A DNA stretch of 64,000 nt from Trueperaceae bacterium (GTDB taxonomy: Bacteria; Deinococcota; Deinococci; Deinococcales; Trueperaceae). Below, piece after piece: positions 21,571-41,413 of this stretch. The number at the start of each line of letters is the position of its first letter. Position 1 is the stretch's first letter. The notes below the pieces were generated by a model that had not been told where the DNA came from, ran no database searches, and saw only the letters and a program-made list of their open reading frames with translations. The position numbers and the translations under genes are program-made. The stretch lies in the NCBI GenBank assembly GCA_965213705.1, contig OZ243913.1, positions 4,096,001-4,160,000 on the forward strand, given 5' to 3'.

Positions 21571-21592
21571 AGAGGCTCCTTTGCACGAAAAG

Positions 21593-21618: not shown

Positions 21619-21642
21619 TCGTTGGCTACGTGAGGTAAGGGT

Positions 21643-25898: not shown

Positions 25899-26010
25899 AC
25901 GACCTTCAAACTGACTGAGACGTTAGCGACGTCACGCGTATAGGCCTAGCGACACCACAAACTGCTTTTCTCCCTAGGCGCCCGGAGATGGTAGGAGAAA
26001 AGAGGTTGGT

Positions 26011-26163: not shown

Positions 26164-29040
26164 CTAGGGGAGGTGGGGAAGCTCAGAAGTCCCCGCCTCC
26201 TCCAAAATGGATAAAATCAGGGTTGCAACCTGCTCCGACGGTAAATCGCACCAAACCGGTGTACCGTCGTAACTCGGCAAACCTTGAAAAACCTTTCTGT
26301 CCGCATAAACCATGTAGGGCGTTTTGGCCTTACAGTAGGCGTATAGGTCTGCGCTCAGCCCGCACAGGGAATTCTTGGTCCCGGCCTGCAGGACGCCCAC
26401 GAGATGGTGCAAGATGATGGGGTCGCTCTGCGTCCACCGAGCTTTTTTAAGCCCTGCACGGTAGTGTTCAAGAGCACGTTGAGGCTCGTCCTCCAGCAGG
26501 TGGACGGCTCCCAACGTCCCGTGCGCTCTCACCTCCTTGCCGATCGAGCGCTGGGCCCGAGCCTCGGTGAGAACCTCGTAACCGAGCTGTTCGGCACGCT
26601 CGCGGCGGCCCTCGAGGGCGAACAGGTGAGCGAGTTTCGCCCGGCTGAGGAGCGCCCAGTGCGCGAGGCCGAGCGCTTTTGCGCAGTCTGAGGCCTGCTC
26701 GAGCCTGAGGCGCGCCTCCAAGGTGTTACCGGTTTCCAGGGCCAACCAGCCGCCGACATAGTTGCACCAAATCTTTTTAGCCGCTATGCCTTGCTGGTCG
26801 AAGAGGTGTTCGGCCGCCGCGAGGCGCGACCGGGCTTCGGCGTAGTCGCCCCGATTGACGGCGTTGATGGCGAGGTTGGTAAGCGCGCTGGCCGCTTCGC
26901 CCGAATCCGGTTCGGCGTAAGTGAAGGCTGTTTCGAAGTAGCCGCGGGCTTCAGCGAAGCGGCCCAGCGAGTCGTAGGCCGCGCCGAGCGTGTTCAAGCA
27001 GGTCTCTCGCGCGCACCCACCACTCAGCGTCAGCGCTGCCTCGGCGGTATGAACGGCTTCAGCGTAACGGCTCGAGCGCAGCAAAAACCAGGCCCGACTT
27101 GCTTGCAAAGCCACAGCCATACCCTTATCTTGCAGAGCCGCGGCCGCTTCCTCGACAAGCTCGAGGCCCTGCTGCGGGCGTGAGTGCAGGTCGTACAGGC
27201 GTTGCAAGGTGGGCAGGGCAGGTTGCAGGACGTGCATCCACTCCTGCCGAACGGCCCAGCGCCAAGCTGCGGCGATGTTGGCCGAACTGGTTTGAAAATC
27301 GACTTTACCCTTCGAGCCTGGCGGCTTTTCCGAGGGTCGCTCGGGCTGCGCTGCGGCTTGCAAGGCCGTCAGATAAAAGGTCGCGTGCCGACTCCGCAAG
27401 GCTGCCTTAGCGGGATGACGTTCGTACAGGTAGCGCGCGAGCAGCGGATGCAAGCTGTAGCGGTCGCGCTCGAAACTCAGGAGCGAGGCGTCTAATAAGC
27501 GCCTCAAGTGCCGAGGTTTCGCCCCGAGAAGCTGTTCGGCAGCCGAGAGAGAAAAACCGCCCCGAAACACGCTCAGCTCGCGAAAGACGGTGGCCGTTTC
27601 CGCGTCGAGGAGAGTGACCGAAAGGTCGAAGGCGGCGTTCAAGTCTTCCCCGTCCGCAGCGCTCAGCGCGCCCAAGTCGGACCTCGAGCGCTCTACAAGC
27701 TCGGCGAGCGGCAGGCTCGCCGTCCAACCCGCGACGAGCTTGAGGGCGAGTGGGACACCGACTGTGTGCCGACACAGCTCGAGCAGCAGCGGTGCATCCT
27801 CGTCGCTGAAAACCGCCCCTTGCCGCGCCGCCGAACTCAGGAAGAGCTTGCCCGCCGCGCTCCGGCCGAGCTGGGCCAGCGTACTTCCCTGGGGCGGCAA
27901 ACTCAAACCGCTCAGGCGAAAAACCCGTTCGTCCTCGAGCCCGAGCCGTTCGCGTGAGGTCACGAGAATTCGCAACTCGGAACAGGCGCGCAAAAGTTGC
28001 CCGATGACGCCCCTCAGCTGGAGCAAGGCCTCGAAATTGTCGAGCACGAGGAGAATGCGCGGCGCGGCGAGGTGCCCGGTCACGGCTTCGGTCAGGTATT
28101 CGAGCTGCGGCTTCACACCGAGCGCGTCGGCCAAAGCTTGCCACAGCGCGCCAGCGGGCGCGTCTTGCGGGAGGTCGGCCAAAGGTACCAGTGCAATTTC
28201 GTCGAAAAGAGACTCGCTTTGCTGCACGAAGGCTTTGGCAAGCTCCGTTTTACCGATGCCGGCCAATCCCGTAACGGTCACCAGGCGTTCTCCGGCCAGA
28301 AAGTGCTCGTGCAGCTGCGTCAACTCGGCCTCGCGGCCGACGAACAGAGACGTCACGCCGACTTCTTGACGAGGCCGACCTCCCTTTACGCTCACCCTAC
28401 TCGCGAAGCCGCCGTGCCACTCGGCCGTTGCACGCTGCACAGCGTCGGCATCGGCGGGGAAACCCAGCTCGAGCAAAAGCCGGTGCATTCGCTCCACGTT
28501 GTAGAGGCTGGGCAGCGCCACACCGTGCGGCAACCGAAAAGCCCGCAGCACCAACGCGCGCGCTCCCGCCGCCTCGCCCTGCCGCCGGCGCTCTTCGGCA
28601 AGGGTCAGCAAAACGTCGGCAAAGCTGTTTTGCAGGGTTGCACGCTCAATACTCAGCCACTCGCTCACCTCTTCCCCGAGCCGTAGGCGCGTCTCCTCGA
28701 GCCCGTACAGAAACGGCCCCCGGTACAGCGCCACAGCGCGTTCGTACTCTTTTTGGGTAAGGGCGCGCCGAAACTCGGCCGCGTCCACGGGCACATGGCA
28801 GCCGAGTCGCCCGCGCCCCGACTCGAGCAGGTTCGGGTCCAGCTTTTTGAGCCGACGCAGCGCCTCTGAAAGGCTTTTGCTGCGCCTAGTCGCGTCTATT
28901 TGATGGGGCCAGAACAGGGCTTGCAGTTCTTTGCGCAAGCATGTGTCATGCAGCGCAACGTAAGTCAGCAACAAAAGAGGTTGGGGCTCGGCAAAGTCGC
29001 TGCCCTCGAGCCTCAAACCTCCTAACGTCACCAGCCGCAT
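26164..29040 (-). CDS. AfsR/SARP-type regulator: wHTH-BTAD, NB-ARC, TPR
   Basis: LFWP...LYRGPFL (BTAD); FVGREAEL, GLAGIGKT, LVLDNFE, TSRE, GVPLAL, LHPLL; TPR-like C-terminus; TATAAC-N6-ATG leaderless start. Confidence 0.92.
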   Translation of the reverse strand: MRLVTLGGLRLEGSDFAEPQPLLLLTYVALHDTCLRKELQALFWPHQIDATRRSKSLSEALRRLKKLDPNLLESGRGRLGCHVPVDAAEFRRALTQKEYERAVALYRGPFLYGLEETRLRLGEEVSEWLSIERATLQNSFADVLLTLAEERRRQGEAAGARALVLRAFRLPHGVALPSLYNVERMHRLLLELGFPADADAVQRATAEWHGGFASRVSVKGGRPRQEVGVTSLFVGREAELTQLHEHFLAGERLVTVTGLAGIGKTELAKAFVQQSESLFDEIALVPLADLPQDAPAGALWQALADALGVKPQLEYLTEAVTGHLAAPRILLVLDNFEALLQLRGVIGQLLRACSELRILVTSRERLGLEDERVFRLSGLSLPPQGSTLAQLGRSAAGKLFLSSAARQGAVFSDEDAPLLLELCRHTVGVPLALKLVAGWTASLPLAELVERSRSDLGALSAADGEDLNAAFDLSVTLLDAETATVFRELSVFRGGFSLSAAEQLLGAKPRHLRRLLDASLLSFERDRYSLHPLLARYLYERHPAKAALRSRHATFYLTALQAAAQPERPSEKPPGSKGKVDFQTSSANIAAAWRWAVRQEWMHVLQPALPTLQRLYDLHSRPQQGLELVEEAAAALQDKGMAVALQASRAWFLLRSSRYAEAVHTAEAALTLSGGCARETCLNTLGAAYDSLGRFAEARGYFETAFTYAEPDSGEAASALTNLAINAVNRGDYAEARSRLAAAEHLFDQQGIAAKKIWCNYVGGWLALETGNTLEARLRLEQASDCAKALGLAHWALLSRAKLAHLFALEGRRERAEQLGYEVLTEARAQRSIGKEVRAHGTLGAVHLLEDEPQRALEHYRAGLKKARWTQSDPIILHHLVGVLQAGTKNSLCGLSADLYAYCKAKTPYMVYADRKVFQGLPSYDGTPVWCDLPSEQVATLILSILEEAGTSELPHLP

Positions 29041-29077
29041 TCTGCGGTTATAGCACGTAGGCCGTAGACGTGGTGGC

Positions 29078-29101
29078 AGCCTCGTTGGAACGTCGTTGGA
29101 A
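29078..29101 (+). promoter_or_regulatory. 11-bp-period direct repeat TCGTTGGAA (SARP-type activator site)
   Basis: AGCCTCGTTGGAACGTCGTTGGAA; 22/24 identical to 39520-39543; 10 nt before TATGAC. Confidence 0.7.
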
Positions 29102-29180
29102 AACCGCGTGCTATGACCAGAAGCATGTTGAGCACGTTCGACGGCGGCGTTTCTCTCACCGCTTATAAGTTCTATCAGGG

Positions 29181-29204
29181 GTTGTCACCAGAGGGTGTGA
29201 CAAC
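29181..29204 (+). promoter_or_regulatory. Palindromic operator GTTGTCAC-N8-GTGACAAC (WYL-type candidate)
   Basis: Perfect 8-bp arms; TGTGAC-N10-TACCGT-N6-ATG(29224). Confidence 0.7.
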
Positions 29205-29223
29205 GCCTCTTTACCGTGAGGCC

Positions 29224-29982
29224 ATGAAGCCTTCTTTTTCTTACAGCCTCAGCCACACGCTCCGCTGCCCTCGCCGCTTTCACTCAGAGAAGTTGCAAAA
29301 GGAACCCGTCCTCGCTCCGTTCGCCTCGAGCACCCTCGGGCGCGAGGTTCACGTGCGCGTCGCCGCCAGCCTCCACAGGGGTACACCCGCCGACGAACGC
29401 TCTTTCCGCTTGCCGAAGCGCGTCTTGTTGCAAGCCGGAGAAAACCTCGACGACCTCGTCTGGCGCGCTCACTGCGCCCTCAGCTTTTACAACGCCAAGT
29501 GCCGCGCCTGGCTCGCCAGGAAAACCACGACCTGTGTTGAGCACTACGTCAGCCGCCCCTACCCACTTCAAAGCGAGACCGTGCAAGTGAGTGGTATTTT
29601 CGACCTCGTTCTTTCTAGCGCCAAAGGAGACGTGCTCATCGACTGGAAAACGGGCAGCGCGCAGCGCAGCGAAGACCAGCTCAAGTTTTACCTCATGCTG
29701 CGCTTTTTAGAAACCGGGCGGCGACCCCGGCACGCCGAGGCGGTGGCGTTAGGGACGGGCGAGCCTTTGTGCATCGTTTGGGACAGCGAGGTAGAACCTT
29801 GGTTCGAAGACAAGCTCGAGGCGATGCGCCGCGACCTGGCCGCTTGCCATACGCGCGCGGCCGTCCCAGGGTTTCACTGCACCTACTGCCCTTACGCGCA
29901 GCGCTGCGAGGCCAGCGAAGCGCCGAACAGATGGGTGCTCGACACTTTTACCGGGGAGGTGACGCACCTTGGGCAAGCGTGA
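29224..29982 (+). CDS. Cas4/RecB-like PD-(D/E)XK nuclease with Fe-S cysteines (alternative in-frame starts 29113/29125)
   Basis: CPRRF, G..VH, GIFDLV, IDWKTG, QLKFY, CTYCPYAQRC. Confidence 0.88.
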   Translation: MKPSFSYSLSHTLRCPRRFHSEKLQKEPVLAPFASSTLGREVHVRVAASLHRGTPADERSFRLPKRVLLQAGENLDDLVWRAHCALSFYNAKCRAWLARKTTTCVEHYVSRPYPLQSETVQVSGIFDLVLSSAKGDVLIDWKTGSAQRSEDQLKFYLMLRFLETGRRPRHAEAVALGTGEPLCIVWDSEVEPWFEDKLEAMRRDLAACHTRAAVPGFHCTYCPYAQRCEASEAPNRWVLDTFTGEVTHLGQA

Positions 29983-30937
29983 AAAAGGCGAGGCGACGCT
30001 GAGGCTCGTCGAATTCGTCGACTACCTCCGCGAACACCCGGAGCAACACAAGGTTGCGGCCTTAGCGGGGCACTTCGGGGTCGACCGTAATCAAATTTAC
30101 CGCTGGGCCAAGTACGCTTATGACCGTTACGGCATTCCCATCGACCTGCCGCCCTTGGTCGAACGCGGCTGCGTCAAACTCGGTGAGGGCGACCACGCGC
30201 TCAAACGAGTCACCTTGGACAGAATCGAAGTCGAGGCGCTGCTCGCAGCCGCCGTCCGCATCGAAGCCTTGACCCCCTATGCCAGACAAGCCCTCGACAA
30301 GCTCGAGGATGCCCGGCGCTTGCCCGAAGACACCCTGCAAGACCCCGTCCTCTACAGCCCGCTCATGGACGAATACGCCCCCGAACTCTTCGAGCGCGTC
30401 GTCAAAGCCGTCAGAGACTACCGAGTAGCACAGGTCAGCTACACCAACGCACGGGGCGAGCGAAAAACGTATCTCTTCAACAGCTACGCGCTCATCGCGG
30501 ACGGGCAGCACCTTTACCTGGTCGGTATCGCCCACAGCAGCCTAGAGGCCGGTTACGACACGGTCATCCCCTTACGCCTCGACCAGATAGAGCACTTCGT
30601 CCTTCAACAAGGTTCGTTCAAAAAACCGTCTTTCGACGCGAAAACCTACGCGCTCAGAGAGTTCGGCCCGTTCAAAGCCGAGGGAGAGGTGCTCAGCATC
30701 AAAGTTCGGTTTTCTGCTGAAAAAGCTCGCTACATCGAGCGCACCAGGCGGCACGAGAGCCAAAGGTGTGTAAAGCATGCGGACGGCACGCTTCTGTGGA
30801 GCATCAGCGCGCCGCTGAACGACGCGCTCGTTTACTGGATTACGAGCTACGGGCCGCACGCCACGGTGCTCGAGCCCGAGGAGCTGAGAGAACAGGTGCT
30901 CGAGTGGGCGCAGGGGAGTGTCAATGCCAATTCATAG
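29969..30937 (+). CDS. HTH-WYL-WCX transcriptional regulator
   Basis: N-terminal HTH; YTNARGE...LYLVG...LRLDQI; WITSYGPHATVLEPEELR. Confidence 0.9.
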   Translation: MGKREKGEATLRLVEFVDYLREHPEQHKVAALAGHFGVDRNQIYRWAKYAYDRYGIPIDLPPLVERGCVKLGEGDHALKRVTLDRIEVEALLAAAVRIEALTPYARQALDKLEDARRLPEDTLQDPVLYSPLMDEYAPELFERVVKAVRDYRVAQVSYTNARGERKTYLFNSYALIADGQHLYLVGIAHSSLEAGYDTVIPLRLDQIEHFVLQQGSFKKPSFDAKTYALREFGPFKAEGEVLSIKVRFSAEKARYIERTRRHESQRCVKHADGTLLWSISAPLNDALVYWITSYGPHATVLEPEELREQVLEWAQGSVNANS

Positions 30938-30954
30938 CCTAACGTCGATACCCG

Positions 30955-31221
30955 CTAAACAGCCGTTTTGGGACGAAGCTTATAAACCTCAGCAAGCTCA
31001 TGCTCGAGGTCTTCTGCGCTGTAATCGGGGTAGTAATAGCCGTGTGAGGTGTACCAGCGGATGGCCTCGAGCCGGTTCAAGCCCAACAGCGAACCTGCCT
31101 TGCCGACACTCATGCGCTCCTCGCGCACCATTTGCAGCAGCAGGCTTTCTAAGACTTTGCGCTCTAAGTCGTCTCCGTAGGCGGCGAGTATTTCGGGGGG
31201 AAGCTCGAGGGTTATGGGCAT
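30955..31221 (-). CDS. UPF0175-family protein (antitoxin-like)
   Basis: ITLELP...MSVGKAGSLLGLNR; TACAAT-N6-ATG leaderless start. Confidence 0.8.
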   Translation of the reverse strand: MPITLELPPEILAAYGDDLERKVLESLLLQMVREERMSVGKAGSLLGLNRLEAIRWYTSHGYYYPDYSAEDLEHELAEVYKLRPKTAV

Positions 31222-31282
31222 ACAGAGATTGTAGAGCAAAAAGAACTAAGGAGGCCAGTTTATAATGACCTCCTCTTCCACC

Positions 31283-31361
31283 ATTATCCTCTGCGAGGTT
31301 GGTTCACGTATCTCTTTCATTGTTTCAATCTTCTTACGAAGATGTTTTGATGATAGCAAAG
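31283..31361 (-). CRISPR. Degenerate CRISPR mini-array (CreR/CreA-like regulatory crRNA)
   Basis: Pseudo-repeat ending ATCTTC-GTAA-GAAGATTGAAAC; spacer AATGAAAGAGATACGTGAA; partial repeat AACCTCGCAGAGGAT. Confidence 0.8.
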
Positions 31362-31418
31362 TTGGTCTAGGTGTACGTAAACTTAGAGTTCAATTTCACG
31401 TTCTTCTCTCATTAACCC

Positions 31419-31447
31419 TTGACAAAGAAAATTCTTTCTCTTACACT
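31419..31447 (+). promoter_or_regulatory. Strong sigma70 promoter of the cas interference operon
   Basis: TTGACA-N17-TACACT. Confidence 0.85.
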
Positions 31448-31536
31448 CCCATAAACCAGCAGGCTGGCTTCGCGCCTACCAAGCTATCAAAGCCAGCTGC
31501 TGCAACGAAAGGCTTCACTGAAAGGAGTGAAGAACT

Positions 31537-31725
31537 TTGTCTATGGGATTATACAACCTTGATCTTGAAACAATTCTTCAGGAGTTTACAAGGGAAACCC
31601 TTGCTACTCTCGAGAAAGAACTTTCTCCCGAGCAATATGCATTTGTCGAGACGCGGCTACAACAGCTTGAGGCTGATAAAGTTTTCGAGCTTTATGAGCA
31701 GGAACTCTACGGAGTTGATTCGTAG
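31537..31725 (+). CDS. Small acidic protein, first gene of the cas operon
   Basis: AAGGAG RBS; stop directly precedes the cas3 RBS. Confidence 0.65.
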   Translation: MSMGLYNLDLETILQEFTRETLATLEKELSPEQYAFVETRLQQLEADKVFELYEQELYGVDS

Positions 31726-31737
31726 GAGGATAGTGAT

Positions 31738-33804
31738 ATGAGAGCCGCATTGAGCCTAACTCTACTCGAGGCCTGGTCAAAACGCTACACGGGAGGCCTG
31801 AATTTTGCCTTGCCAGAGGGTTGGCAACTCGCCACTCACCAAAAAGAGGTGTATGACACGCTGCACGAGCCTGATATAGATGTTGTGTTTGATACGGCGA
31901 TGACCGGGGACGGGAAGAGTTTAGCCGCTTATTTACCCATGCTTCGCCCGCAGGCTAAACGGCTGGGTAATGCTGTAGTCGCCTATCCAACCAATGAACT
32001 CATTCGCGACCAGGAAAGGCAGGTTAAAAACTACTTGGATGATTTCTCTGTTGACTTGAGCTTCCAAAAACTCAACGGAGAAACTATAGGAAGCGTGGCT
32101 AAGGAAAACGAAGTATCCCGCTACGAGTCAATTAAAGATTTGGTCTACAGGCAAAAGCTTCTGCTGACCAATCCCGATGTTTTTAATCTTATCGAAAGCT
32201 TTGCCTACACTAGCCCTATCAATCCGGCAACGCTTGCCCAAGAGTTTTCCAGCCTCTTTCGTTATGTGGTTTTTGACGAGTTTCACATTTTTGCGGCTCC
32301 GCAGATAGCCGCGATTATCGACGCCATGCTGTTCATTCGGGCAAACGGCAGTGCGAACTTTCCGACTAAGTTTCTATTTCTGTCGGCAACCCCGAGCCCC
32401 ATTCTCAGAGACGTCCTGGACAACGCTGATTTCAGGTTCCGAGTTATCGAGGGAAGCTACCAACACGGTCCCAAACCCAAAGGTGCTTACCGAAGCATTT
32501 TGCAAGAGGCAACCCTCGAGCTTGAACCCTGCGAGGCAAATACTGGTGGCATTTTGGGGTGGGCAACAAACAATCTCGAGAAAATCAAAGGGTTTTATCG
32601 TGAGAATCCGGGAAGTAAAGGGTTGATTATCTGTAACAGCGTATTTACGGCAAAAAAGCTGTATGCCTATTTGCGAGAGGGCTTGGTCGATACGGGAATC
32701 TCTTTAGGTGAAAATACAGGTTTGACGGGCAAGGAAGAAAAGCAAAGGTCATTAGAGCAAGACCTTGTTGTGGCGACATCAACAGTGGACGTTGGTGTCG
32801 ATTTCCGCATCAACTTTCTTATTTTTGAGTCTTTGAATGCCGGTTCTTTTATTCAACGTTTGGGTCGTTTGGGCAGACATAAAGATTTTCCTGTCTATCA
32901 CGCAGTAGCGCTATTGCCACAGTTTTTGGTTGAACGCTTTGCAAAGCATTATCAAGATGGGCAGACGGTTGACAGATGGTCTTTTTTTCAAAACTTGAGT
33001 GAGATTAAAGACGATAAAGCCGAGCAAATTTTTCCGCCGGAACAGGAGTTCAAGCCTTATATCAAACGTTGGGGCGGTGTCAAGGCAGTTCAGCGTCTAG
33101 GCAAGCTCTATAAGTATGGGGGTAAGGACAAATATCAGACACTTATACAGCGCTATCAACCGAATGCCGCTCAGGTTTTCAAGATTGCGAGCACAACCCA
33201 GGCTCGAGCAAGGCGACTTGAACCGGCTGTAAACAAAGAACTGTTCTCCTTCCGGGGTGCCGGACTGATGGACATCTGGACCTTTGACCCTTCTTCAAAA
33301 GCAGTAACTACGGTAAATGTTCTAAGGCTTTTGGCGGGGACAGAGTTTGGGTTGATCAGCAAACAAGAAGCGGAAGCTATCGCCATAATACACAGCACGC
33401 CTTTTTATCCAACTTACCTGAATCTCTACGCCAAAATCCACAGCTATAAGGAGGAGTACGACTTTGTTCAACTCCGCTATCAGCACACTTTTGGAGATGA
33501 TGGTCAAGCTTTCAATCACGCAGCAGACCGCGCCGGGTTTTTACTAGAAGCCGCTCATCCCGATATTCGCAAGGTGAGCCAAGCTCTCGTCAACAAACCT
33601 CTCTGCAGTTGCGTATGTGATAAAGAGCTGAGTGGTGAAAGCCCGCGAAACGCCCAAAGAATTTTGAGTTTGCCACCCCTGTTCAGTTTGGCCCAGGTCA
33701 TCGATAGCACCAACACTTCCTATACCGTTGCCTTTGGTCACGAAGCCCTTCTGCTGGACAGCCTTATTCACTGGCGAAAAATAAACGACTATTTCATTGC
33801 TTGA
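31738..33804 (+). CDS. cas3: Type I-D helicase Cas3' (no HD domain)
   Basis: TAMTGDGKS, YPTNEL, FDEFH, LSAT, STVDVGVD, QRLGRLGRH. Confidence 0.95.
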   Translation: MRAALSLTLLEAWSKRYTGGLNFALPEGWQLATHQKEVYDTLHEPDIDVVFDTAMTGDGKSLAAYLPMLRPQAKRLGNAVVAYPTNELIRDQERQVKNYLDDFSVDLSFQKLNGETIGSVAKENEVSRYESIKDLVYRQKLLLTNPDVFNLIESFAYTSPINPATLAQEFSSLFRYVVFDEFHIFAAPQIAAIIDAMLFIRANGSANFPTKFLFLSATPSPILRDVLDNADFRFRVIEGSYQHGPKPKGAYRSILQEATLELEPCEANTGGILGWATNNLEKIKGFYRENPGSKGLIICNSVFTAKKLYAYLREGLVDTGISLGENTGLTGKEEKQRSLEQDLVVATSTVDVGVDFRINFLIFESLNAGSFIQRLGRLGRHKDFPVYHAVALLPQFLVERFAKHYQDGQTVDRWSFFQNLSEIKDDKAEQIFPPEQEFKPYIKRWGGVKAVQRLGKLYKYGGKDKYQTLIQRYQPNAAQVFKIASTTQARARRLEPAVNKELFSFRGAGLMDIWTFDPSSKAVTTVNVLRLLAGTEFGLISKQEAEAIAIIHSTPFYPTYLNLYAKIHSYKEEYDFVQLRYQHTFGDDGQAFNHAADRAGFLLEAAHPDIRKVSQALVNKPLCSCVCDKELSGESPRNAQRILSLPPLFSLAQVIDSTNTSYTVAFGHEALLLDSLIHWRKINDYFIA

Positions 33805-33815
33805 AAGGAGTAGTA

Positions 33816-36800
33816 ATGGATGAAAACGAAGACATCTTAACCGAGTTCAACTTTGAAGACTGGGAAGAGCCTTTAGAACCAAAGGCTTATGAGCAGGTAC
33901 AAAGGCCCCCATTTGCAAAACTCATACTCGACACGGTTCAGGATGCGCCCTCAGCGCTTCAGGATTGGGCAGAACTGGTTGTACCTAAGCTTCTCAGTGT
34001 TCTGGCGCTGCGTAACGCGAAAGGCATGGGCGAGGTCGAAGCGAATCGGTTCTTGGGAAAAACGGATTTCAAGTCAGGTCAGGCTCGAGCCAAAGCGTTC
34101 AAAAAATTAACCGAAATGCCCGATCAAAGTCTCGCCGTTCACACCCTGAATGCGGCTTTGGGTGGCTGGACGGTCGTTGCGCTTGCGAACCTTGATGATT
34201 TCGAGCAACGCCTGTATTTAGCAGGGATAACCTTGCACGACCTCAACAAGATGTTGGGAACAACTCTGCGTTTGCAGGGTGAGCAGAAAGAGGCCTTTGA
34301 GGAAGCTTTCAAAGCCTGGGCTGAACGCCTTGGCCTTTGGCAATTTATAGGCGAAAACCACTGGGCCGATGTTGCTTACTTGGCTCAAAACGCAGAAGCC
34401 GTCAAGGGTGAGAACCGCACACTCTTCAACTACGACCAGTTGCAAACATCACCGGAAGACTTGGAGCCTATCAGCGATTTTGTTCGCTTGGCCGATCTCC
34501 TGGCAAGCGCAGCCAAACACCCTGACGACGTTTTAAACATGGGAGGCGGCAATAAAGTCATAGAAACGCTTCGGCGCGTTCTACGGGGGAAATATATACT
34601 TCGTTACCACAAAACCGCCGACAACCGTGGCTTACTCACCCAACTGATTCACAATGCTGTTTTAGAGCAAGCCCAAGAGAAGGGTTGGCTACCTTTCCTG
34701 TACTTTCCCGACGGCGTGACTTACTTAGTCCCTAAAGAAGCGGAGAACATCAATCTCGAAGACGTTCCCCAGCGAGTTAGGCAAATGCTTGTAGAGTCCG
34801 TAGCCGACAAGCTGGGTCAACTGGTGGCTCGAGCCCCCACCGGAATGCGTTACAAGCCCGAATTTATCGAACTTTTGACACCTGCTCGAGCTTGCAAGTT
34901 GGCAATCCAAAGGATTTTGGAGATTATCAGCGACAAAAAGCCTCCCGTGACCGACGAGCGAAAGGCGAAGACTGTACTCCGCAAAGATGCCACGGTCAAG
35001 CTCGATTTTGACTATGGCGCTTCTCTGAACGCCGACCGATTGGCGGAAGGCTTGTTCGGTGTGTCGAAAATAATCTTCGACTATTACGGGGATGATAGAG
35101 AGACACATGGGGGGTCCCTCATTTGCGCACTTGGGCTGGGGGATTTGGTAGAGACATTCAGGTCTATCGAATTTACAGGCGGCGTGGGTTATCCCTGGTA
35201 CTACATCGGGGGTCACTACATACACCGCAATCCCGGCTTAGATGCCAACGACGTTGAAAACGTGATGCAAAAAGCGGTAACTCAGGTTTTAGGCGACCTC
35301 GGTGAACCGAAAAAAGAGCCCCCTTTCGGCTTTTTGGAAAGTTACATCGGCCAAACACTCAGCACAGGCACCGAGCGTGAAGCATGGAACTTCTCGGGCG
35401 AGTTGGAGCGGTATGTCGTCAGTAAAAAACTACGCAGTGGACAGCGAGTTTGTGCAGTCTGCAACAGTAGCTTTGCTGTAAGAGCAGACTACTCGACATT
35501 TTCTAATAAGCAAGTTGCAGGCTACGCCGATGCGCGCCGCGGTATCTGTCAGATCTGTCAGGCCGAAAATCTACTGCGCCGCTTCACGCTCGGAAAAGAC
35601 ATGCTGTCAGATGACGGCACGAAGTTCTTGCATCTCTACCCAACTTACTTCTTTACACCTATCACAGCGAAGGTGATGCAACACGCCTATCAATCTTTCA
35701 AACAAGCCACTTTTGCCGAAATTGCCAAACCTTATCAGCAAGCCGATTACGAGGTCAGGGCGATTCTCCATGCTGACGTTTTCCAGGTTTTGAAAGCCGA
35801 TAACCCCAAAAGACGACTTGACAGAGTGGACTATCCCGAGGGACAGATGCACGGTTACTTCCTGCTCGGAGTTCCGTACTTGGGGCGCGACCCGAGCGAT
35901 ACCGAGACGTGGGTCATGCCTGCGCTGCTGGCGCTGCTTTCCCCTTTACTGTTCGGCACGAAAGCTGTGGTCAGCGATTCGGCTTTACCGCTGTTTACGA
36001 GCGGTGCGGACTTTCCCGAGACGGTCGTTCTCGACGCGCCCCACAGCTTTTGGCAGCACGGCATAAAGAAAACGAGGTTTCGTCTGGATGAACTCGAGAA
36101 AGGTTTGCATACAGTATTGGCACTTTACGGTTTGGTCAGCGAAGCCTACAAAGACGGCAAGGGTTATGCCATTTGGAATCAGCTCGGCTCGGTGGCTCGA
36201 AACCTCGACTCCGAACCTCTAAGCATCTTCGGCTACGCGGACCGTATCAGCTCACAGCTCAGCAAGGGAAAAAGCACCCTCACAAGCACCGACGGCATGT
36301 CTCCTTGGTTGGCTCAACGTTTAACAACCTACTACGAATCAACGCTGGACTTCTACGAAACTTACTCTTTAGGAGGTACATCAAGAATGGGATTGATTCA
36401 GGAAACCGTCGATAAATATGCGAAGTTTTACAGGGCGCGAGGCTCGAGTTCGGCTTATGCAAGATTGCGTCCCTTGGACGACGCTATCAAAGTTATTCTG
36501 GCTGCACCGACAGAAGAGCAACTCGACCAAGAAAGCTTGCACCTTGAAATTATGGGGGCGCTGATGGCATATCTAGGCAGAATTAGAGATAGAGATCCAT
36601 CGATTAAAGGCATCATTCCTAAAGGTATGTGGAGTGATGATGTCCTACTCCCTGCGGTGAGCGACTTTGCAACCCACATGTTGGACAAGGTGTTTTGTGA
36701 CTTCGCCGGAGGTGACAGGGCAATTTTGAGGAAGCAACTCAACAAGTTCAAAAATGGTTGTGAAGCTTACTACGTTCTTCATTACGGAAGAAAAAAGACG

Positions 36801-36845
36801 GATGAAAGCGCCTCTACAGAAAATCACGAAAAGGAGAGTAGCTGA
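33816..36845 (+). CDS. cas10d: Type I-D large subunit Cas10d (Csc3) with N-terminal HD nuclease
   Basis: DQSLAVHTLN, LHDLNK, LADLLAS, CAVC...CQIC, HLYPTYFFT; AAGGAG RBS. Confidence 0.95.
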   Translation: MDENEDILTEFNFEDWEEPLEPKAYEQVQRPPFAKLILDTVQDAPSALQDWAELVVPKLLSVLALRNAKGMGEVEANRFLGKTDFKSGQARAKAFKKLTEMPDQSLAVHTLNAALGGWTVVALANLDDFEQRLYLAGITLHDLNKMLGTTLRLQGEQKEAFEEAFKAWAERLGLWQFIGENHWADVAYLAQNAEAVKGENRTLFNYDQLQTSPEDLEPISDFVRLADLLASAAKHPDDVLNMGGGNKVIETLRRVLRGKYILRYHKTADNRGLLTQLIHNAVLEQAQEKGWLPFLYFPDGVTYLVPKEAENINLEDVPQRVRQMLVESVADKLGQLVARAPTGMRYKPEFIELLTPARACKLAIQRILEIISDKKPPVTDERKAKTVLRKDATVKLDFDYGASLNADRLAEGLFGVSKIIFDYYGDDRETHGGSLICALGLGDLVETFRSIEFTGGVGYPWYYIGGHYIHRNPGLDANDVENVMQKAVTQVLGDLGEPKKEPPFGFLESYIGQTLSTGTEREAWNFSGELERYVVSKKLRSGQRVCAVCNSSFAVRADYSTFSNKQVAGYADARRGICQICQAENLLRRFTLGKDMLSDDGTKFLHLYPTYFFTPITAKVMQHAYQSFKQATFAEIAKPYQQADYEVRAILHADVFQVLKADNPKRRLDRVDYPEGQMHGYFLLGVPYLGRDPSDTETWVMPALLALLSPLLFGTKAVVSDSALPLFTSGADFPETVVLDAPHSFWQHGIKKTRFRLDELEKGLHTVLALYGLVSEAYKDGKGYAIWNQLGSVARNLDSEPLSIFGYADRISSQLSKGKSTLTSTDGMSPWLAQRLTTYYESTLDFYETYSLGGTSRMGLIQETVDKYAKFYRARGSSSAYARLRPLDDAIKVILAAPTEEQLDQESLHLEIMGALMAYLGRIRDRDPSIKGIIPKGMWSDDVLLPAVSDFATHMLDKVFCDFAGGDRAILRKQLNKFKNGCEAYYVLHYGRKKTDESASTENHEKESS
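36387..36845 (+). CDS. cas11d: Cas11d small subunit from an internal start in cas10d
   Basis: In-frame ATG (MGLIQETVDKYAKFY) preceded by AGGAGG at 36371-36376. Confidence 0.8.
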   Translation: MGLIQETVDKYAKFYRARGSSSAYARLRPLDDAIKVILAAPTEEQLDQESLHLEIMGALMAYLGRIRDRDPSIKGIIPKGMWSDDVLLPAVSDFATHMLDKVFCDFAGGDRAILRKQLNKFKNGCEAYYVLHYGRKKTDESASTENHEKESS

Positions 36846-37771
36846 TGTTCGACGCATATGAAAAATACTTCCATACGGCAATCCCTCTGCGCCCCGGTGC
36901 AAAGTACGCCCACATCCTAGTTCTCCGCAAAACGGAAAGTTACGCAGTTTTCAAAACAGATGGCGAACTCAACACTGCTAGGGTTAGCTCGGGTCTCGAG
37001 GATAAAACACAAATCTCACGCTTGACGATTTTCAAACGCAAACAGACCACCCCCGAGCGCTTGACAGGCCGAGAGATTTTGCGCCGTTACGAACTCTTAC
37101 CCGCTGACGACCAGTACAACGTGAACTTCACACCCGACTCGCCCGACTCGGTCATTTACGGCTACGCTATTGGTGATTCGGGGTCTGAAAAGTCGAAGGT
37201 CTATGTAGACACAGCCTTTTCTCTCACCAACTACGACGTTTCCCACGAAACGATGACGCTGAACGCGCCTTACGAGGACGGCACCATGACGCGGGGCAGC
37301 AGCACCACAAACCGTTTTAGCGAACAAGACCATGTTCTGCCGGAAGTTTATTTTCCGAGCGTCGTCACCGTTCGAGACCCTACCCAAAATACGCTTGCTT
37401 ACGTCATCAACAACATCAGACGTACCAAACGTTACGGCGCACAAACAACGCGAACCGGACAAGTGTCCAACCAAATCGTCGGCCTTATCTTTGCCGACGG
37501 GGAGATTTTCAGCAATTTACGGCTTGTCCAAGCGATGCACGACCTTTTGGAAAGCGACAAAACCCTCAGCCAAGACGCTGCGATGGTACAGGTCGCCCGC
37601 GACCTCGTAGCACGCGACGGCGTCATTTACGAACTGGTCACGGGTGAACAGCTCGAGGTGTTGCTCACCGAACTCGATGCTGTTTTTACGGATGAAACGC
37701 AGTTGAAAACCTTTTTGACCGACCTCTACAGCGAAACGAAAGCCTACGCTGAATCCGTGAAAAACCAGTAG
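36845..37771 (+). CDS. cas7: Type I-D Cas7d (Csc2)
   Basis: FKRKQTTPER.TGRE, YGYAIG, RYGAQTTRTG. Confidence 0.95.
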   Translation: MFDAYEKYFHTAIPLRPGAKYAHILVLRKTESYAVFKTDGELNTARVSSGLEDKTQISRLTIFKRKQTTPERLTGREILRRYELLPADDQYNVNFTPDSPDSVIYGYAIGDSGSEKSKVYVDTAFSLTNYDVSHETMTLNAPYEDGTMTRGSSTTNRFSEQDHVLPEVYFPSVVTVRDPTQNTLAYVINNIRRTKRYGAQTTRTGQVSNQIVGLIFADGEIFSNLRLVQAMHDLLESDKTLSQDAAMVQVARDLVARDGVIYELVTGEQLEVLLTELDAVFTDETQLKTFLTDLYSETKAYAESVKNQ

Positions 37772-37776
37772 CAGTT

Positions 37777-38433
37777 ATGCATGCTTACCACCTAGAGATT
37801 GACTTACATGACCTCATGTACTACGCTTCTCGCGAACTGGGGCGCATGTACATCAGTGAGCGCTATATCCACAATTACGCGCTGACCTACGCCTTGGGTT
37901 TAGCTAAGAGTGGCTATCACGACGCGGTTCAGGTGCCTCACTACCGAGAAGACTTGGAACCTCTGAATGACGCTGGAGTTTATGTCACTCCTGCCAAACC
38001 CATCCGTGTGGAAACGTCTACGCATACGTTCAAGCTCGCAGACACTCGGTACCAGGTCAAAATGGAGCAGTCGAGCGTCAACATTCCCACCTTTGGACGC
38101 ATTCGCGAGATAAACCCCGAATCGCGTTATGAAGCCTTCGTTCTTACGAAGGAGAAGCTCGAGCTTCCCAAGTGGATTCGGCTTGGTAAGTGGATGAGCA
38201 AAGCCTCGGTAGCAACTGCAGAAGTCGAAGTGAGTGAGGGAAAGAAAACGTTTAGCACTTTGCACCCTCTCAATGGTCTCGACTTACCTTTCGACGCGAA
38301 GCTTTACGACCTTATCAACATGCCTCCGGTCTCTCTTATCGAAAATGCAAGGTTTGAGGGCGAGTGCTACACCCTGAAGCTGAGCGAGAAAGAGACTCGC
38401 GAGTTTCCAAAAGGACTAAGGTACACCTTCTAA
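37777..38433 (+). CDS. cas5: Type I-D Cas5d (Csc1)
   Basis: ASRELGR, IHNYALTYALG, PKWIRLGKWMSKA, MPPVSL. Confidence 0.95.
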   Translation: MHAYHLEIDLHDLMYYASRELGRMYISERYIHNYALTYALGLAKSGYHDAVQVPHYREDLEPLNDAGVYVTPAKPIRVETSTHTFKLADTRYQVKMEQSSVNIPTFGRIREINPESRYEAFVLTKEKLELPKWIRLGKWMSKASVATAEVEVSEGKKTFSTLHPLNGLDLPFDAKLYDLINMPPVSLIENARFEGECYTLKLSEKETREFPKGLRYTF

Positions 38434-39233
38434 TGCCCCATGCTTTCCTCCTCCACCTCACCCCCACCACCCGCGCCCCCGACCACCCCTACCTCCACCA
38501 GTACACCCACGGCCTCTTCTATCACCTGTTGGAAACCATTCATCCCGCGCTGAGCGCCGACATTCATGCCAGCAAGCGCAACCCCTTCACGCTTTGGGCC
38601 AGGGAAAAGGACGGCGGCATCTTGCTGCGCGTGACCGTCCTGAACGATACCCTCTTTCAATCGCTGCTCGAGGTGGTGTTGCAAGAATCCTTGACGGGCC
38701 TGGAGCTGGGCCAGGACAGCTACCGGGTGGCGAGGGTATTAGCGACGCCGGAAGGCCACCGGGACGCGGGCTTCTTAGGCTGGGAAGATGTTTTATGTGC
38801 CCGGCCCGTGAACAGGCTCGAGCTGCGCTTCGTCACGCCGACGGTGTTTGCGACCTCGAAAGGGAAAAAGCGGCACTACACGCCGCTACCCCTGCCGAGG
38901 CTGGTGCTGAAAAGTTTGCTGAACGCCTTTCAAGCCTACAGCCCCGCGCCCTACAGCGAGCCGGAAGCGGCGGGGTTGGAGGCTATGTTCGACGAACTGT
39001 TCGTCGTCACAAGTCACGATATTGCCACAAAGCCCCACAAAGCGGGCAAGGTCAGGCTGACCGGCTTCGTGGGGCGGGCGAGCATTCGCTATCAAGAGGC
39101 GTCGGGGCGGGTCGAGAAAGCGCTCGGGCAGCTTGCCAGCCTCGTCTTTTTCAGCGGGGTGGGGGCGAAGACGCCTTACGGGATGGGGCAGGTGCGTGTA
39201 AAGGTTGGAAGCGGGCAAGTTGGTAGCAAGTAA
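38433..39233 (+). CDS. cas6: CRISPR endoribonuclease Cas6
   Basis: F.TPT.F, GFVG, C-terminal G-loop FSGVGAKTPYGMG. Confidence 0.95.
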   Translation: MPHAFLLHLTPTTRAPDHPYLHQYTHGLFYHLLETIHPALSADIHASKRNPFTLWAREKDGGILLRVTVLNDTLFQSLLEVVLQESLTGLELGQDSYRVARVLATPEGHRDAGFLGWEDVLCARPVNRLELRFVTPTVFATSKGKKRHYTPLPLPRLVLKSLLNAFQAYSPAPYSEPEAAGLEAMFDELFVVTSHDIATKPHKAGKVRLTGFVGRASIRYQEASGRVEKALGQLASLVFFSGVGAKTPYGMGQVRVKVGSGQVGSK

Positions 39234-39266
39234 CGTAGGCACTGGAAAAAGCCCTATGATGAAGCT

Positions 39267-39464
39267 GTGAACGAGTTCGAGCTTTTGAACAGAATAACCC
39301 TCGACCCCGACATCTGTCACGGCAAACCTTGTATCAGAGGGTTGCGCTATCCCGTCGAGACGATTCTGGAACTTTTAGGGAGCGGCATGTCCTTCGGGGA
39401 TCTTTTGGACGACTACGAAGACCTCGAGCGCGAGGACTTGCAGGCAGCTCTAATCTGGCAATAA
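39267..39464 (+). CDS. DUF433-family protein (antitoxin-like; partner absent)
   Basis: RITLDPDICHGKPCIRGLR...ILELL..G. Confidence 0.85.
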   Translation: MNEFELLNRITLDPDICHGKPCIRGLRYPVETILELLGSGMSFGDLLDDYEDLEREDLQAALIWQ

Positions 39465-39519
39465 CCGTCACTGCGCCGCTCGCTGGCAGCCGCTTCTATC
39501 CCTGTAAACCTCATCCGTA

Positions 39520-39543
39520 AGCCTCGTTGGAAGCTCGTTGGAA
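39520..39543 (+). promoter_or_regulatory. 11-bp-period direct repeat TCGTTGGAA upstream of cas4
   Basis: AGCCTCGTTGGAAGCTCGTTGGAA; 10 nt before TACGCT. Confidence 0.7.
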
Positions 39544-39600
39544 CGCCGTCGTTTACGCTTGTCTCGAGCCCGAGACGCCTATCCGATGTACGGAGGTTCT

Positions 39601-40161
39601 ATGGAATATTTGCCCATCAGCAAAATCAACACGGTCGTTTTTTGCCCGCGCCGCTACTACATCGAGCAGCTTTTGGCGGACACCGTGACGAACTATCACA
39701 TGACCGAGGGCACGGCGCTGCACGAGCGCACGGTGCGGACAGGCGAAGGCGTGTGGGTGTGGAGCAACTGCCTGGGCGTCAGCGGGATTATCGATCAGGT
39801 CGTACACGAGGACGGCGAGTGGGTCATCACCGAGTTCAAAAAGGGCTACCTCGGTGAGCACGAGAGCGACCGGGTGCAACTCTGCGCGCTCGCAGTTTGC
39901 TATGAGGAGGTTCACGGCGTGCATCTGAGTCACGGCTACATCTACTACCACCGCACCCGCAGGCGCAGCTTGGTCGAATACACACCCGAGCTGCGGCAGC
40001 GGGTCGAGGCGGCGGTCGCCCTGATGCGTAGGCTCGAGCAGCAAAGCCACTACCCGCCGGTCATCGACAACCCCAACAAATGCCAAGGGTGCAGCGTGCG
40101 CGAACCCTGCCAGCCGACGCTGACGCGCAGGCAGTTACCCCGCTGGAAGGGAGCAGTGTGA
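39601..40161 (+). CDS. cas4: CRISPR-associated Cas4
   Basis: FCPRR, G..LH, GIID, EFKKG, QLCA, CQGCSVREPC; GGAGG RBS. Confidence 0.95.
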   Translation: MEYLPISKINTVVFCPRRYYIEQLLADTVTNYHMTEGTALHERTVRTGEGVWVWSNCLGVSGIIDQVVHEDGEWVITEFKKGYLGEHESDRVQLCALAVCYEEVHGVHLSHGYIYYHRTRRRSLVEYTPELRQRVEAAVALMRRLEQQSHYPPVIDNPNKCQGCSVREPCQPTLTRRQLPRWKGAV

Positions 40162-41135
40162 TGGGTACGCTCTACGTTTTAGAACCTGACGTCTACCTGT
40201 CCAAAGACGGCGGCGTGCTGAAAGTTTCGCGCAGCAAGGGGCGGGAGGTGCTTCTCGAGCGCCCCCTGGCCCACGTGTCCGACGTGGTGATTTTGGGCCG
40301 GGCGACGGTCACTTCGTCGGCCCTTCAAGCCTGCGCCGAGCAGGGCACGGCGATTCACTACCTCACCCGCGGCGGCAAGTACGTGGCGCAGGTCGCCCCC
40401 GTCGAAAACAAAAACGTGCTGGTGCGCATCAAGCAGTACGAAGCGTACCTAAACCCCGAGTGGAAACACAGCTTGGCGCGGCGTTTTGTCGAGGGCAAGC
40501 TCGCCAACGCTATCGTCTTCGCGCGGCGGGGAGGCGCGGAGGTGGGCAGTTTGATGGCGCTCGTCAAACCTATCGCAAGGTGCGACAATACGGAAGCCTT
40601 GCGGGGGCTCGAGGGCAACGCCGCCCGGCTCTACTTCGGCCTCTTGAAAGACAAGTTCCCGGCAGCGTTCGCGCCCGAGTCGCGCAGTAAACGCCCGCCA
40701 CGCGACCGCGCCAACAGCTTGCTGTCGCTCGCCTACACCTTTTTAGCCAAAGAATGCCAGACGGCGGTCCGGGTGGCCGGGCTCGACCCGTATGTGGGCT
40801 ACCTGCACGAAGCCAAGTACGGCAAACCCGCCCTCGCCCTGGACCTGATGGAAGAGTTCCGCTCTATCATCGCCGACTCGGTGACGCTGACGCTCTTCAA
40901 CCGCGGCATGATTACCGAAGACATGTTCGAAGACGAGCGCGGCTATCCGACCCTGGCCGACGAAGGCTTCAAGCAGTTTTTACGAGCCTGGGAAGACCGC
41001 CTCAACCAACAGGTACACCACCCGTACCTCAAACAAAAGCTCGACTACCGGCAGGTGCTGGTGGCGCAGGCGCGCATTTTGGGCAAGCACCTCATGGGCG
41101 AACTGCCGGAGTATCTCCCCTTTACCGTGCGCTGA
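40161..41135 (+). CDS. cas1: CRISPR integrase Cas1
   Basis: RGLEGNAARLYF, NSLLSLAY, GLDPYVGYLH, LALDLMEEFR. Confidence 0.97.
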   Translation: MGTLYVLEPDVYLSKDGGVLKVSRSKGREVLLERPLAHVSDVVILGRATVTSSALQACAEQGTAIHYLTRGGKYVAQVAPVENKNVLVRIKQYEAYLNPEWKHSLARRFVEGKLANAIVFARRGGAEVGSLMALVKPIARCDNTEALRGLEGNAARLYFGLLKDKFPAAFAPESRSKRPPRDRANSLLSLAYTFLAKECQTAVRVAGLDPYVGYLHEAKYGKPALALDLMEEFRSIIADSVTLTLFNRGMITEDMFEDERGYPTLADEGFKQFLRAWEDRLNQQVHHPYLKQKLDYRQVLVAQARILGKHLMGELPEYLPFTVR

Positions 41136-41413
41136 TGTTTTACCTCGTCATCGCCTACGACACGCCCAGCGACAAGCGGCGCATCAAAATGGTGAAGCTC
41201 CTGAAGCGCTTCGGCGAGCGGCGGCAGTACAGCCTGTTCGAAGCGAGGGTCAGCCGCGACCAGTTGGCGACGTTGCAAACCTCGCTGGCTAAAATCGCCG
41301 ACGAAACCGAAGACACACTGGCGATTTACTTCTTGACACCGGAAAGTTTGCAGCGAACTTTCCGCATCGGCCACAGTGAGATAAAATCTTTAAGGGAGCC
41401 TGACTTTGTTTAG
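41135..41413 (+). CDS. cas2: CRISPR-associated Cas2
   Basis: VIAYD, RRQYSLFE. Confidence 0.95.
   Translation: MFYLVIAYDTPSDKRRIKMVKLLKRFGERRQYSLFEARVSRDQLATLQTSLAKIADETEDTLAIYFLTPESLQRTFRIGHSEIKSLREPDFV

Follow-up and report, generated by a model that had tools for sequence, protein, structure and literature searches.

Architecture of the locus

The window, a 64,000-nt stretch of a Trueperaceae bacterium genome, carries cas10d, csc2, csc1, cas3', cas6, cas4, cas1, cas2 and an array, the gene set of a type I-D CRISPR-Cas system (Table 1). The interference genes clear their profile cut-offs by wide margins (cas10d 333.7 against 60 bits, csc2 264.2 against 38, csc1 194.6 against 41.4 and cas3' 251.1 against 69.1), and cas6 passes in Pfam. 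Two further genes, for a nuclease and a WYL-domain protein, precede them, a large regulator gene points away on the opposite strand, and a short peptide gene runs toward the 3' end of the regulator gene, leaving a gap of 12 bp. The first gene of the operon had been called Cas4-like in a preliminary description of this DNA, a label we replace: its product scored 27.4 bits with the cas4 profile, for which the cut-off is 65, and is instead a PD-(D/E)XK nuclease, which in one relative (G023) has shrunk to a short remnant ORF.

Candidate promoters could be placed around these genes. The ATG predicted for P1 is in frame and open in all six genomes that could be read, and the P1 hexamer lacks the final T and follows an upstream TG in 7 of 7 genomes. 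The sequence TTATAGCA at the regulator's own promoter is kept in three aligned genomes.

Table 1. Genes, sites and predicted promoters of the locus (positions in the window)
Feature	Position	Strand	Basis
Peptide-gene promoter, predicted to be WYL-controlled: palindrome 1 (TGTAAC-N8-GTGACA), 9-nt gap, -10-like CAAACT	25878..25912	+	
46-aa precursor peptide with a basic N-terminus and a hydrophobic stretch; its conserved C-terminus ends in DYDTGSG	26011..26151	+	
958-aa regulator: SARP (winged helix and BTAD) ~1-210, STAND ATPase ~230-560, TPR ~580-950	26164..29040	-	
Predicted leaderless promoter of the regulator: TG-n-TATAAC 6 nt before ATG	29047..29055	-	sequence
Direct-repeat site A (9+2+9, 11-bp period)	29082..29101	+	sequence, relatives
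Promoter P1: TG-n-TATGAC (29109-29117), ATG at 29125 sharing the frame of the P2 start	29109..29127	+	
Promoter P2, predicted leaderless and WYL-controlled: palindrome 2 (29183-29202), TACCGT (29212-29217), ATG at 29224	29183..29226	+	
PD-(D/E)XK nuclease (the long form begins at 29125)	29224..29982	+	PDDEXK_1
WYL-WCX regulator, candidate palindrome binder	29969..30937	+	
Type I-D interference genes cas3', cas10d, csc2, csc1, cas6	31738..39233	+	
DUF433 gene between cas6 and site B	39267..39464	+	
Direct-repeat site B (39524-39543), 10-nt gap, TACGCT (39554-39559)	39524..39559	+	
cas4, cas1, cas2	39601..41413	+	
CRISPR array, 33 exact 36-nt repeats, then one degenerate copy	41636..43947	+	

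A pair of direct repeats precedes the interference and adaptation genes

The preliminary description had placed one 24-bp direct repeat before both operons. Both strings are present and identical at 22 of 24 positions, but the leading four bases (AGCC) are not kept in relatives, and the element is therefore 20 bp long (9+2+9). As first described, its period is 11 bp, and a gap of 10 nt leads to the hexamers TATGAC (29112) and TACGCT (39554). The genome-wide motif scan suggested there returned two matches to the 20-bp core in the 4.25-Mb genome, sites A and B themselves, and still exactly two when three mismatches were allowed; a single 9-mer alone occurs 24 times. Within the window, two matches were found at up to three mismatches, with a mean of 0.01 in shuffled sequences and no shuffle in 100 yielding two.

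The site pair is common to seven Trueperaceae genomes (five genera, two clades, all kin), one site lying ahead of the nuclease-WYL-interference operon and the other ahead of cas4. A TA dinucleotide at +11 is present at 14 of 14 sites, compared with 3 of 111 background matches, the background being motif matches from a metagenome scan with at least 120 loci. One comparison gave TA at +11 for 13 of 13 sites with every other downstream offset at 4 or fewer, and the fourteenth site was checked separately. None of the at least 120 metagenome motif loci listed had a cas gene, a member of the regulator family or the peptide gene. A search of genome contigs with the nuclease as query gave no loci, a search of metagenome contigs with the regulator alignment gave no loci, and G001, a genome of the same genus, had no motif, WYL or cas4 matches.

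A changed form of the repeat was first noticed at site A of G266 and then found before cas4 in G266, G225 and G029, whose regulators are 29-31% identical to that of the window. In a tree that included two of these regulators (G266 and G029), the pair joins the others with a support of 0.998, and the predicted recognition-helix region differs in both. Judged from these sequences, one clade has altered both sites jointly with the regulator, a change that counts as one event because the seven genomes are kin. Type I-D genes, WYL and palindromes also occur in G300, a fragmented genome of 90% completeness, where cas4 is preceded by a palindrome but not by the repeat and no regulator-family member reaches E ≤ 1e-20.

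It is very improbable that the repeat is read by some other factor, such as the WYL protein, an OmpR-family regulator (for example that at 9815-10513) or a paralog, or that recombination of the 10.4-kb segment separating the copies left it as a scar. Side-by-side binding does occur in OmpR-family proteins as well, according to the accessible part of PMC11301090, and related tandems exist elsewhere: other Trueperaceae have twelve CGTTGGAA-like tandems at a distance from cas genes, so that a paralog of the regulator could, to judge by sequence, read the repeat. Three of the twelve stand where a STAND or TPR ORF ends (two by our own profile, one by Pfam), against 1 of 24 controls; none of the twelve has TA at +11, and paralogs with this geometry are rare (one of 30, L117, and one of four, L144, with a different repeat in each). 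Against these readings, when the two sites within a genome are compared, identity is limited to the 9-mers (16-18 of 18 positions, compared with 2-7 of 10 or 20 in the flanks, in six genomes), and site B of G225 and G266 lies on a different contig, behind an unrelated gene. The WYL-bearing locus of G300, with neither regulator nor repeat before cas4, likewise speaks against them. A target-site duplication was also considered and ruled out, as the likeness of the site flanks is no better than chance.

The divergent gene encodes an AfsR-like SARP-STAND-TPR protein

The regulator combines an N-terminal winged helix and BTAD with a central STAND/NOD and C-terminal TPRs, the architecture of a large SARP of the AfsR type. 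BTAD is matched at 22.6 bits (cut-off 22.1), NB-ARC, AAA_22 and TPR are matched as well, and the Trans_reg_C profile has no match in the protein. No sequence-level match to AfsR was found in the PDB. A full-length fold (pLDDT 73) is poor at the N-terminus, matches the STAND-TPR protein 6mfv best and does not recover AfsR, which is recovered by an N-terminal model with a deeper alignment. That model has a pLDDT of 95.7 and AfsR and EmbR as best folds, and the three chains that Foldseek ranks highest are of AfsR, taken from activation complexes (8k60, 8hvr; TMq 0.54-0.66).

The sites fit an AfsR-type protein too. In Streptomyces, the afs box covers the -35 region with two 11-bp repeats, the 3' unit ending 8 bp before the -10, and all 14 sites here have the same layout if nine conserved and two free bases are counted as one unit. 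The locus shares with AfsR the SARP-NOD-TPR order and the SARP fold; it differs in the repeat sequence, the Deinococcota host, the cas targets and the adjacent peptide gene. The earlier proposal of SARP geometry read by an AfsR-type activator is thus supported, on sequence and model grounds, by conservation in seven genomes, the joint change of the sites, the absence in G300 and the AfsR fold; it was incomplete in having neither the peptide gene nor the WYL-linked palindromes. We consider it very probable that the SARP protein activates both promoters.

A WYL protein travels with a palindrome

The WYL and WCX domains of the second regulator score over their cut-offs, and an HTH was detected only in a 44% identical homolog from G123. 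All seven loci have a palindrome before the peptide gene, and 9 nt separate the palindrome from a -10-like hexamer both there and at the second operon promoter. The genome contains two full palindrome matches, both at this locus. An unbiased scan of 151 genomes found five distinct palindrome sites, four of which accompany this WYL family, one of these being in G123, a genome of another family; by this comparison, the palindrome travels with the WYL gene. From its placement, the WYL protein probably controls P2 and the peptide gene. [quoted passage not shown]

The presence of an HTH-WYL-WCX protein among type I-D genes recalls Sll7009 and, more widely, BrxR, DriD and PafBC; BrxR also has an inverted-repeat operator like the palindrome, and sensing of single-stranded DNA has been shown for PafBC and DriD. 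Unlike in these known cases, one of the two predicted targets here is a signal-peptide gene, and cas4 lies under the direct repeat.

A small peptide is modelled in the TPR groove of the regulator

The peptide gene has third-position bias (codon-position differences 28/12/96) and a purine-rich ribosome site, and its product has no match in Pfam or NCBIfam. A search of 363 genomes gave seven strong matches (E ≤ 3e-10, the next at 2e-4), 41-46 aa long. Each of the seven loci has the gene and the regulator tail-to-tail, and a similar gene is present at one of 30 paralog loci. All six precursors scored, by eye and a hydropathy rule, have a basic residue and a hydrophobic window of 2.5-3.2, and the peptide is likely secreted.

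In structural models the C-terminus of the peptide occupies the TPR groove with a complex score of 0.92, compared with 0.02 for the best of three controls, a result that may be reached partly by likeness, because TPR-peptide complexes are frequent among solved structures. Of the solved pairs, 116 of 157 come up to the mark applied to this score, as do 2 of 215 mismatched ones; with our own alignments these counts are only roughly valid. Across runs at least 69% of the contacts agree, with a partner pLDDT of at least 55. Interface columns are more conserved (16 of 60 at ≥0.9, against 39 of 313); inner faces of TPRs are conserved also for structure. The invariant N722 and R655 of the regulator are modelled against the acidic-tyrosine core of the peptide, and the families are alike in size (8 clusters for the peptide, about 10 for the regulator subfamily). 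These models suggest that the peptide is probably the regulator's ligand. A regulator that activates on a different ligand, such as a phage protein, with the peptide gene as linked passenger or separate WYL target, would accord with reports of CRISPR-associated STANDs and of STAND sensing of phage proteins, and neighbouring genes can pass the complex test; we hold it quite improbable, given a pairing that is strict in all seven loci down to 29% regulator identity, the similar small families and the residues modelled at the core.

Binding of the peptide appears more likely to activate than to inhibit. An arbitrium-like arrangement, with the activator on by default or through another signal and the accumulating peptide shutting off costly cas genes, would fit the complex model equally, which carries no sign, and peptide binding represses in arbitrium (described in the available portion of PMC13220667). 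We regard this as unlikely, since in AfsR the NOD and TPR inhibit the SARP domain until a stimulus arrives, which favours activation by the ligand.

It is similarly unlikely that the regulator activates both promoters while the peptide acts inside its producer, its tail reaching the TPR upon failed export, an envelope defect or re-import by the same cell, with no signal between cells. Co-occurrence and the complex model fit this equally well, there is no dedicated peptidase or importer in the locus, and STAND proteins commonly sense intracellular ligands (PMC13581612, in part). On the other side, a basic start, hydrophobic stretch and short conserved C-terminus are the anatomy of exported pheromone precursors in the sections available of PMC10075063, and the genome encodes 13 family-5 solute-binding proteins, which are general candidates for importing peptides.

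Discussion

A circuit may be drawn from what is seen in the sequence (repeat sites and palindromes at fixed spacing, a peptide gene, their joint conservation in seven genomes) and from models that give an AfsR-like N-terminal fold and a peptide in the TPR groove. By analogy with known families of such proteins, a WYL dimer on the palindrome would respond to single-stranded nucleic acid, invading or damaged; the peptide would then be made, and its precursor exported, trimmed and re-imported. Ligand at the TPR would relieve STAND autoinhibition, and two SARP domains side by side over the -35 region would recruit RNA polymerase, so that the SARP-STAND receptor would switch on the interference and adaptation genes. 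We put the whole circuit, in which SARP-STAND-TPR on the repeat activates the interference and acquisition promoters once its TPR binds the peptide tail and WYL likely controls the peptide gene, at somewhat better than even.

The peptide and its receptor resemble the RRNPP systems of Firmicutes (PlcR-PapR, AimR-AimP), which, as far as the consulted part of PMC10075063 goes, likewise pair a small signal-like precursor bearing a conserved C-terminal tail with an adjoining TPR-containing cytoplasmic regulator and nearby targets. Precursor length falls within the RRNPP range of 10-100 aa, the receptor has TPRs and the two genes are adjacent; RRNPP receptors are 250-500 aa long, in contrast to 958 aa with SARP and STAND here, and the phylum and the WYL-linked palindrome at the peptide gene also differ. 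The input of AfsR, in the excerpts available, is phosphorylation and ATP. In Serratia, SmaI/SmaR quorum sensing places interference and adaptation under an extracellular signal (PMC5179492, in part), as proposed here; that global AHL circuit de-represses, whereas here the peptide and activator would be dedicated ones, encoded within the cas locus and with only two sites per genome. In the literature covered, mostly freely accessible main texts, no SARP or STAND activator is described that is paired at cas genes with a secreted peptide. CRISPR-associated STAND NTPases are reportedly treated in Shmakov 2018 (cited in PMC13581612), with a STAND gene beside cas genes as here, and the regulator subfamily may figure in that work without its sites or peptide.

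When cells should undertake costly spacer acquisition is an open question, and the locus is a compact, fully specified candidate, with a pair of operators, a pair of regulators, four promoters and a single short ligand that can be synthesized; its two natural operator variants permit a clean specificity swap. If the reading is true, it would extend peptide signalling beyond Firmicutes with a STAND-family receptor, give an AfsR-type activator a defined ligand and place CRISPR under control between cells by a danger-induced, not density-induced, signal. More tentatively, and with the balance somewhat against it, the peptide may be an alarm pheromone: phage or damage ssDNA sensed by WYL would lead to its secretion, and neighbours importing it would turn on the NLR-like STAND factor, and with it interference and spacer acquisition, before infection. 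If so, an interferon-like warning would be built into the cas locus.

A direct repeat before both operons of a type I-D locus

The window carries a type I-D CRISPR-Cas locus in which the preliminary description had noted one direct repeat before the nuclease-WYL operon (site A) and again before cas4 (site B), and had proposed that a divergent AfsR-type protein activates the adaptation genes through it. Both strings are present at those positions, as the only two matches in the window at up to three mismatches (shuffle mean 0.01), and a scan of the 4.25-Mb genome with the 20-bp core, again at up to three mismatches, returned the same two matches only. Among 61 genomes searched at one mismatch, three matched the pattern, each with two copies 9–11 kb apart; a search of 128 family genomes at two mismatches added G152 with a repeat pair, along with nine lone matches in eight further genomes, none near cas genes among those examined. 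In three relatives (G004, G023 and G152) the pair again precedes the nuclease-WYL operon and cas4. The relative G266, whose regulator is only 29% identical, has an altered repeat with TCACTGGAA in each half; inspecting cas4 upstream regions after noticing this form, we found it before cas4 in G266, G225 and G029, and at site A also in G029 and G225. The total is 14 sites in seven genomes of five genera. These seven are kin, and the alteration counts as one event on a tree of 30 sequences, from which the G225 regulator, split across contigs, was left out; another genome, G033, is counted in tallies only and supports no claim.

TA lies at +11 from the repeat in 13 of 13 tabulated sites and in the 14th, with every other downstream offset reaching at most four, and occurs there in 3 of 111 metagenome motif matches taken as background. 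Site B has TAnnnT in 7/7 genomes; site A has TG-n-TA in all seven and the final T in none, and within one genome the likeness of the two sites is confined to the 9-mers. In all six readable cases an ATG after site A, at +22 to +24 (four genomes) or +34 (two), shares the reading frame of the nuclease gene, with no stop codon in between; G225 has an extra, out-of-frame ATG at +21. In G225 and G266, cas4-cas1-cas2 lies behind an unrelated gene on a separate contig and retains the repeat site, which argues for a promoter of its own. We conclude that the repeat is real and conserved, and that it is probably functional. Away from cas genes, loci L063, L075 and L076 bear CGTTGGAAC tandems with TA at +12 instead of +11, possibly sites of paralogous SARP proteins.

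Feature coordinates in the window and in compared loci (L handles)
Feature	Position	Strand	Detail
MalT-like STAND-TPR protein	13057-16023		C-terminal Trans_reg_C; imperfect 11-bp-period repeat just beyond 3' end
Left flank of cas locus	16942-24676		DUF6915, VWA/AAA, GemA, DUF932 genes
Hairpin-like stretch	25960-26000		Upstream of peptide ribosome site; conserved in all aligned genomes
46-aa peptide ORF	26011-26151	opposite to regulator	Stop 12 bp from regulator stop
Regulator gene	26164-29040	-	958 aa
Site A	29082-29101		
Site B	39524-39543		
Locus gene order			PD-(D/E)XK nuclease, WYL-WCX, cas3', cas10d, csc2, csc1, cas6, DUF433, cas4, cas1, cas2, array
Antitoxin-type UPF0175/DUF433 genes, 62-aa ORF	30955-31725, 39267-39464		Inside operon; presence varies among relatives
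Spacer end present twice in array	41688-41742, 42112-42166		
Right flank	44036-57932		Conjugation block: VirB4, VirD4, TrbL, lytic transglycosylase, Replic_Relax
Second array (G004, G023, G152)	L007 before 2950; L008 after 16750; L023 after 13330		Just upstream of peptide promoter, running away from it
Short leader-proximal spacers	L023 13357-14200		Many far below usual 35 nt (repeat spacings 39-61)
G152 effector block	L023 334-7053		770, 290, 268, 910 aa; only Cas3 core over NCBIfam cut-off
Gene after WYL gene and palindrome	L270 1-1488 (G123:C22)		At least 496 aa; no Pfam match
Non-cas paralog	L101 (G035:C4:1422313-1427448)		Convergent 59-aa signal-peptide ORF, acidic glycine-rich tail

A SARP-STAND-TPR regulator

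The divergent 958-aa protein gives STAND and TPR matches and a BTAD match slightly above cut-off. Its N-terminal model (pLDDT 95.7) has AfsR chains in activation complexes as its top three fold matches, with EmbR close behind. Orthologs of about 50% identity occur in G004 and G023 and were not found in the other 58 relatives searched for the regulator. According to passages of PMC10936776, SARP targets are 11-bp repeats whose 3' copy lies 8 bp from the -10 element, two SARP domains sit side by side across the -35 region, and the SARP domain is inhibited by NOD and TPR. Taken as nine conserved plus two free bases, our repeat unit fits this geometry exactly; since the contacts of AfsR cover bp 1–8 of its own unit, the register is similar and not necessarily identical. 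Among paralogs, L117 (one of 30 loci) and L144 (one of four) each have a repeat of another sequence that stands equally far from TAnnnT. In G300, a genome of another family with type I-D genes and WYL, no repeat was found before cas4, nor a regulator-family member at E ≤ 1e-20 (genome 90% complete). Activation of both cas promoters by the SARP protein is a reading we hold with high confidence. We class the repeat operator and its regulator with the AfsR systems, as new cases.

A convergent peptide gene

The preliminary description overlooked a 46-aa ORF facing the regulator. Its profile gave seven strong hits among 363 genomes of the order, followed by an E-value gap from 3e-10 to 2e-4, and all seven lie tail-to-tail with the regulator; a comparable small gene occurs at 1 of 30 paralog loci, four of which have fewer than 300 bases of downstream DNA. 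Codon-position differences of 28/12/96 over the last eight codons and a purine-rich site upstream of every start indicate a real gene. The peptide has no match in Pfam or NCBIfam; its family forms only eight clusters at 90%, and 1.84 billion representatives yielded six short hits, the seventh being a 2269-aa repeat protein. The hairpin-like stretch upstream may control translation, and L101 is a possible second peptide-receptor pair.

Co-folding TPR residues 578–950 with peptide residues 17–46 scored 0.92 (best control 0.02), a mark reached by 116 of 157 solved versus 2 of 215 mismatched pairs, rates only roughly valid as own alignments were used. Runs shared at least 69% of contacts, with partner pLDDT of at least 55. 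Residues 31–46 are modelled in the TPR groove, D38–D42 contacting A687, N722, I725, W758, Y761, R655 and H794; N722 and R655 are invariant, and 16 of 60 interface columns are conserved at 0.9 or more versus 39 of 313 elsewhere. Because many solved structures are of TPR-peptide complexes, part of the score may stem from resemblance to them. The model supports the predicted binding of the peptide by the TPR domain. Less likely readings are that the regulator responds to another ligand, or that the peptide is inhibitory.

A palindrome linked to the WYL protein

Also overlooked was a palindrome, TGTHAC-N8-GTGACA (one base may differ), upstream of the peptide gene and within the 5' end of the nuclease gene. 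The strict form has two genome matches, both at this locus, and a looser form ten. It lies 9 nt upstream of nAnnnT in 13/13 readable cases at both positions in seven genomes, rows chosen by position from a longer loose-match list, with the second G029 site truncated by a contig end. PafBC sites may have similar spacing. Across 151 genomes, palindrome plus spacing gave five distinct sites, four at loci bearing this WYL family; at the G009 site no WYL-family gene was found within 1.5 kb. G300 has the palindrome before cas4 and before cas3', and G123, of a third family, immediately behind a 44% identical WYL gene; the gene that follows there (L270) is a candidate WYL-controlled defence gene. In the portions of literature compared, BrxR, a WYL protein, binds inverted repeats, PafBC and DriD act as activators in response to ssDNA, and Sll7009 represses type I-D. 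The fixed spacing and weak hexamers suggest WYL activation at the palindromes; a ligand-released repressor would give the same output.

Surroundings and known systems

Its flanking genes and conjugation block make the cas locus likely cargo of an integrative element; the DUF6915-to-conjugation genes were not found in the 18–19 kb either side of the G004 locus. No array was found upstream of the peptide promoter in the window. The short L023 spacers reflect either assembly error or aberrant acquisition.

No description of the module was found in the literature searched; supplementary tables that catalogue genes linked to CRISPR, or clades of STAND proteins, may include the regulator. T. thermophilus TTHB186 is a putative regulator adjoining type I-E genes; we take it to contain a BTAD domain. 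The peptide-regulator pair would work like RRNPP pairs, but receptor length and domains fall outside the RRNPP definition in passages of PMC10075063. Excerpts of PMC5179492 describe AHL quorum control of CRISPR in Serratia, the authors foreseeing peptide-based cases. Comparison drew on parts of PMC10936776, PMC11301090, PMC10212523, PMC6789036, PMC11804915 and PMC13581612, and further of PMC7662524, PMC1274311, PMC5179492, PMC10075063 and PMC9122601.

A proposed circuit

In the circuit we propose, ssDNA sensed by the WYL protein would likely switch on the peptide gene and P2, the predicted promoter linked to the palindrome at the nuclease gene, which would serve WYL itself and the interference genes. 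The peptide precursor would likely be exported and trimmed, and its tail imported; 13 family-5 binding proteins in the genome are candidate importers, none shown specific. The tail would then bind the TPR domain and unlock the STAND protein, and SARP dimers would activate P1, at site A, and the cas4 promoter. We lean slightly towards this peptide-activated circuit as a whole.

The module is rare so far, in seven genomes of one family. G152 has a different set of effector genes (910-aa Cas3, weak Csc2 match, two unassigned genes), so the control module persists where the effectors have changed. This block may represent a divergent type I subtype. Relative to G300, cas4 appears to have shifted from direct WYL to peptide control, though a single outgroup cannot order events. 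That the peptide serves as a cell-to-cell alarm is a tentative reading, which we consider rather less probable than the circuit itself; a peptide acting cell-autonomously is a rival reading to which we give less weight.
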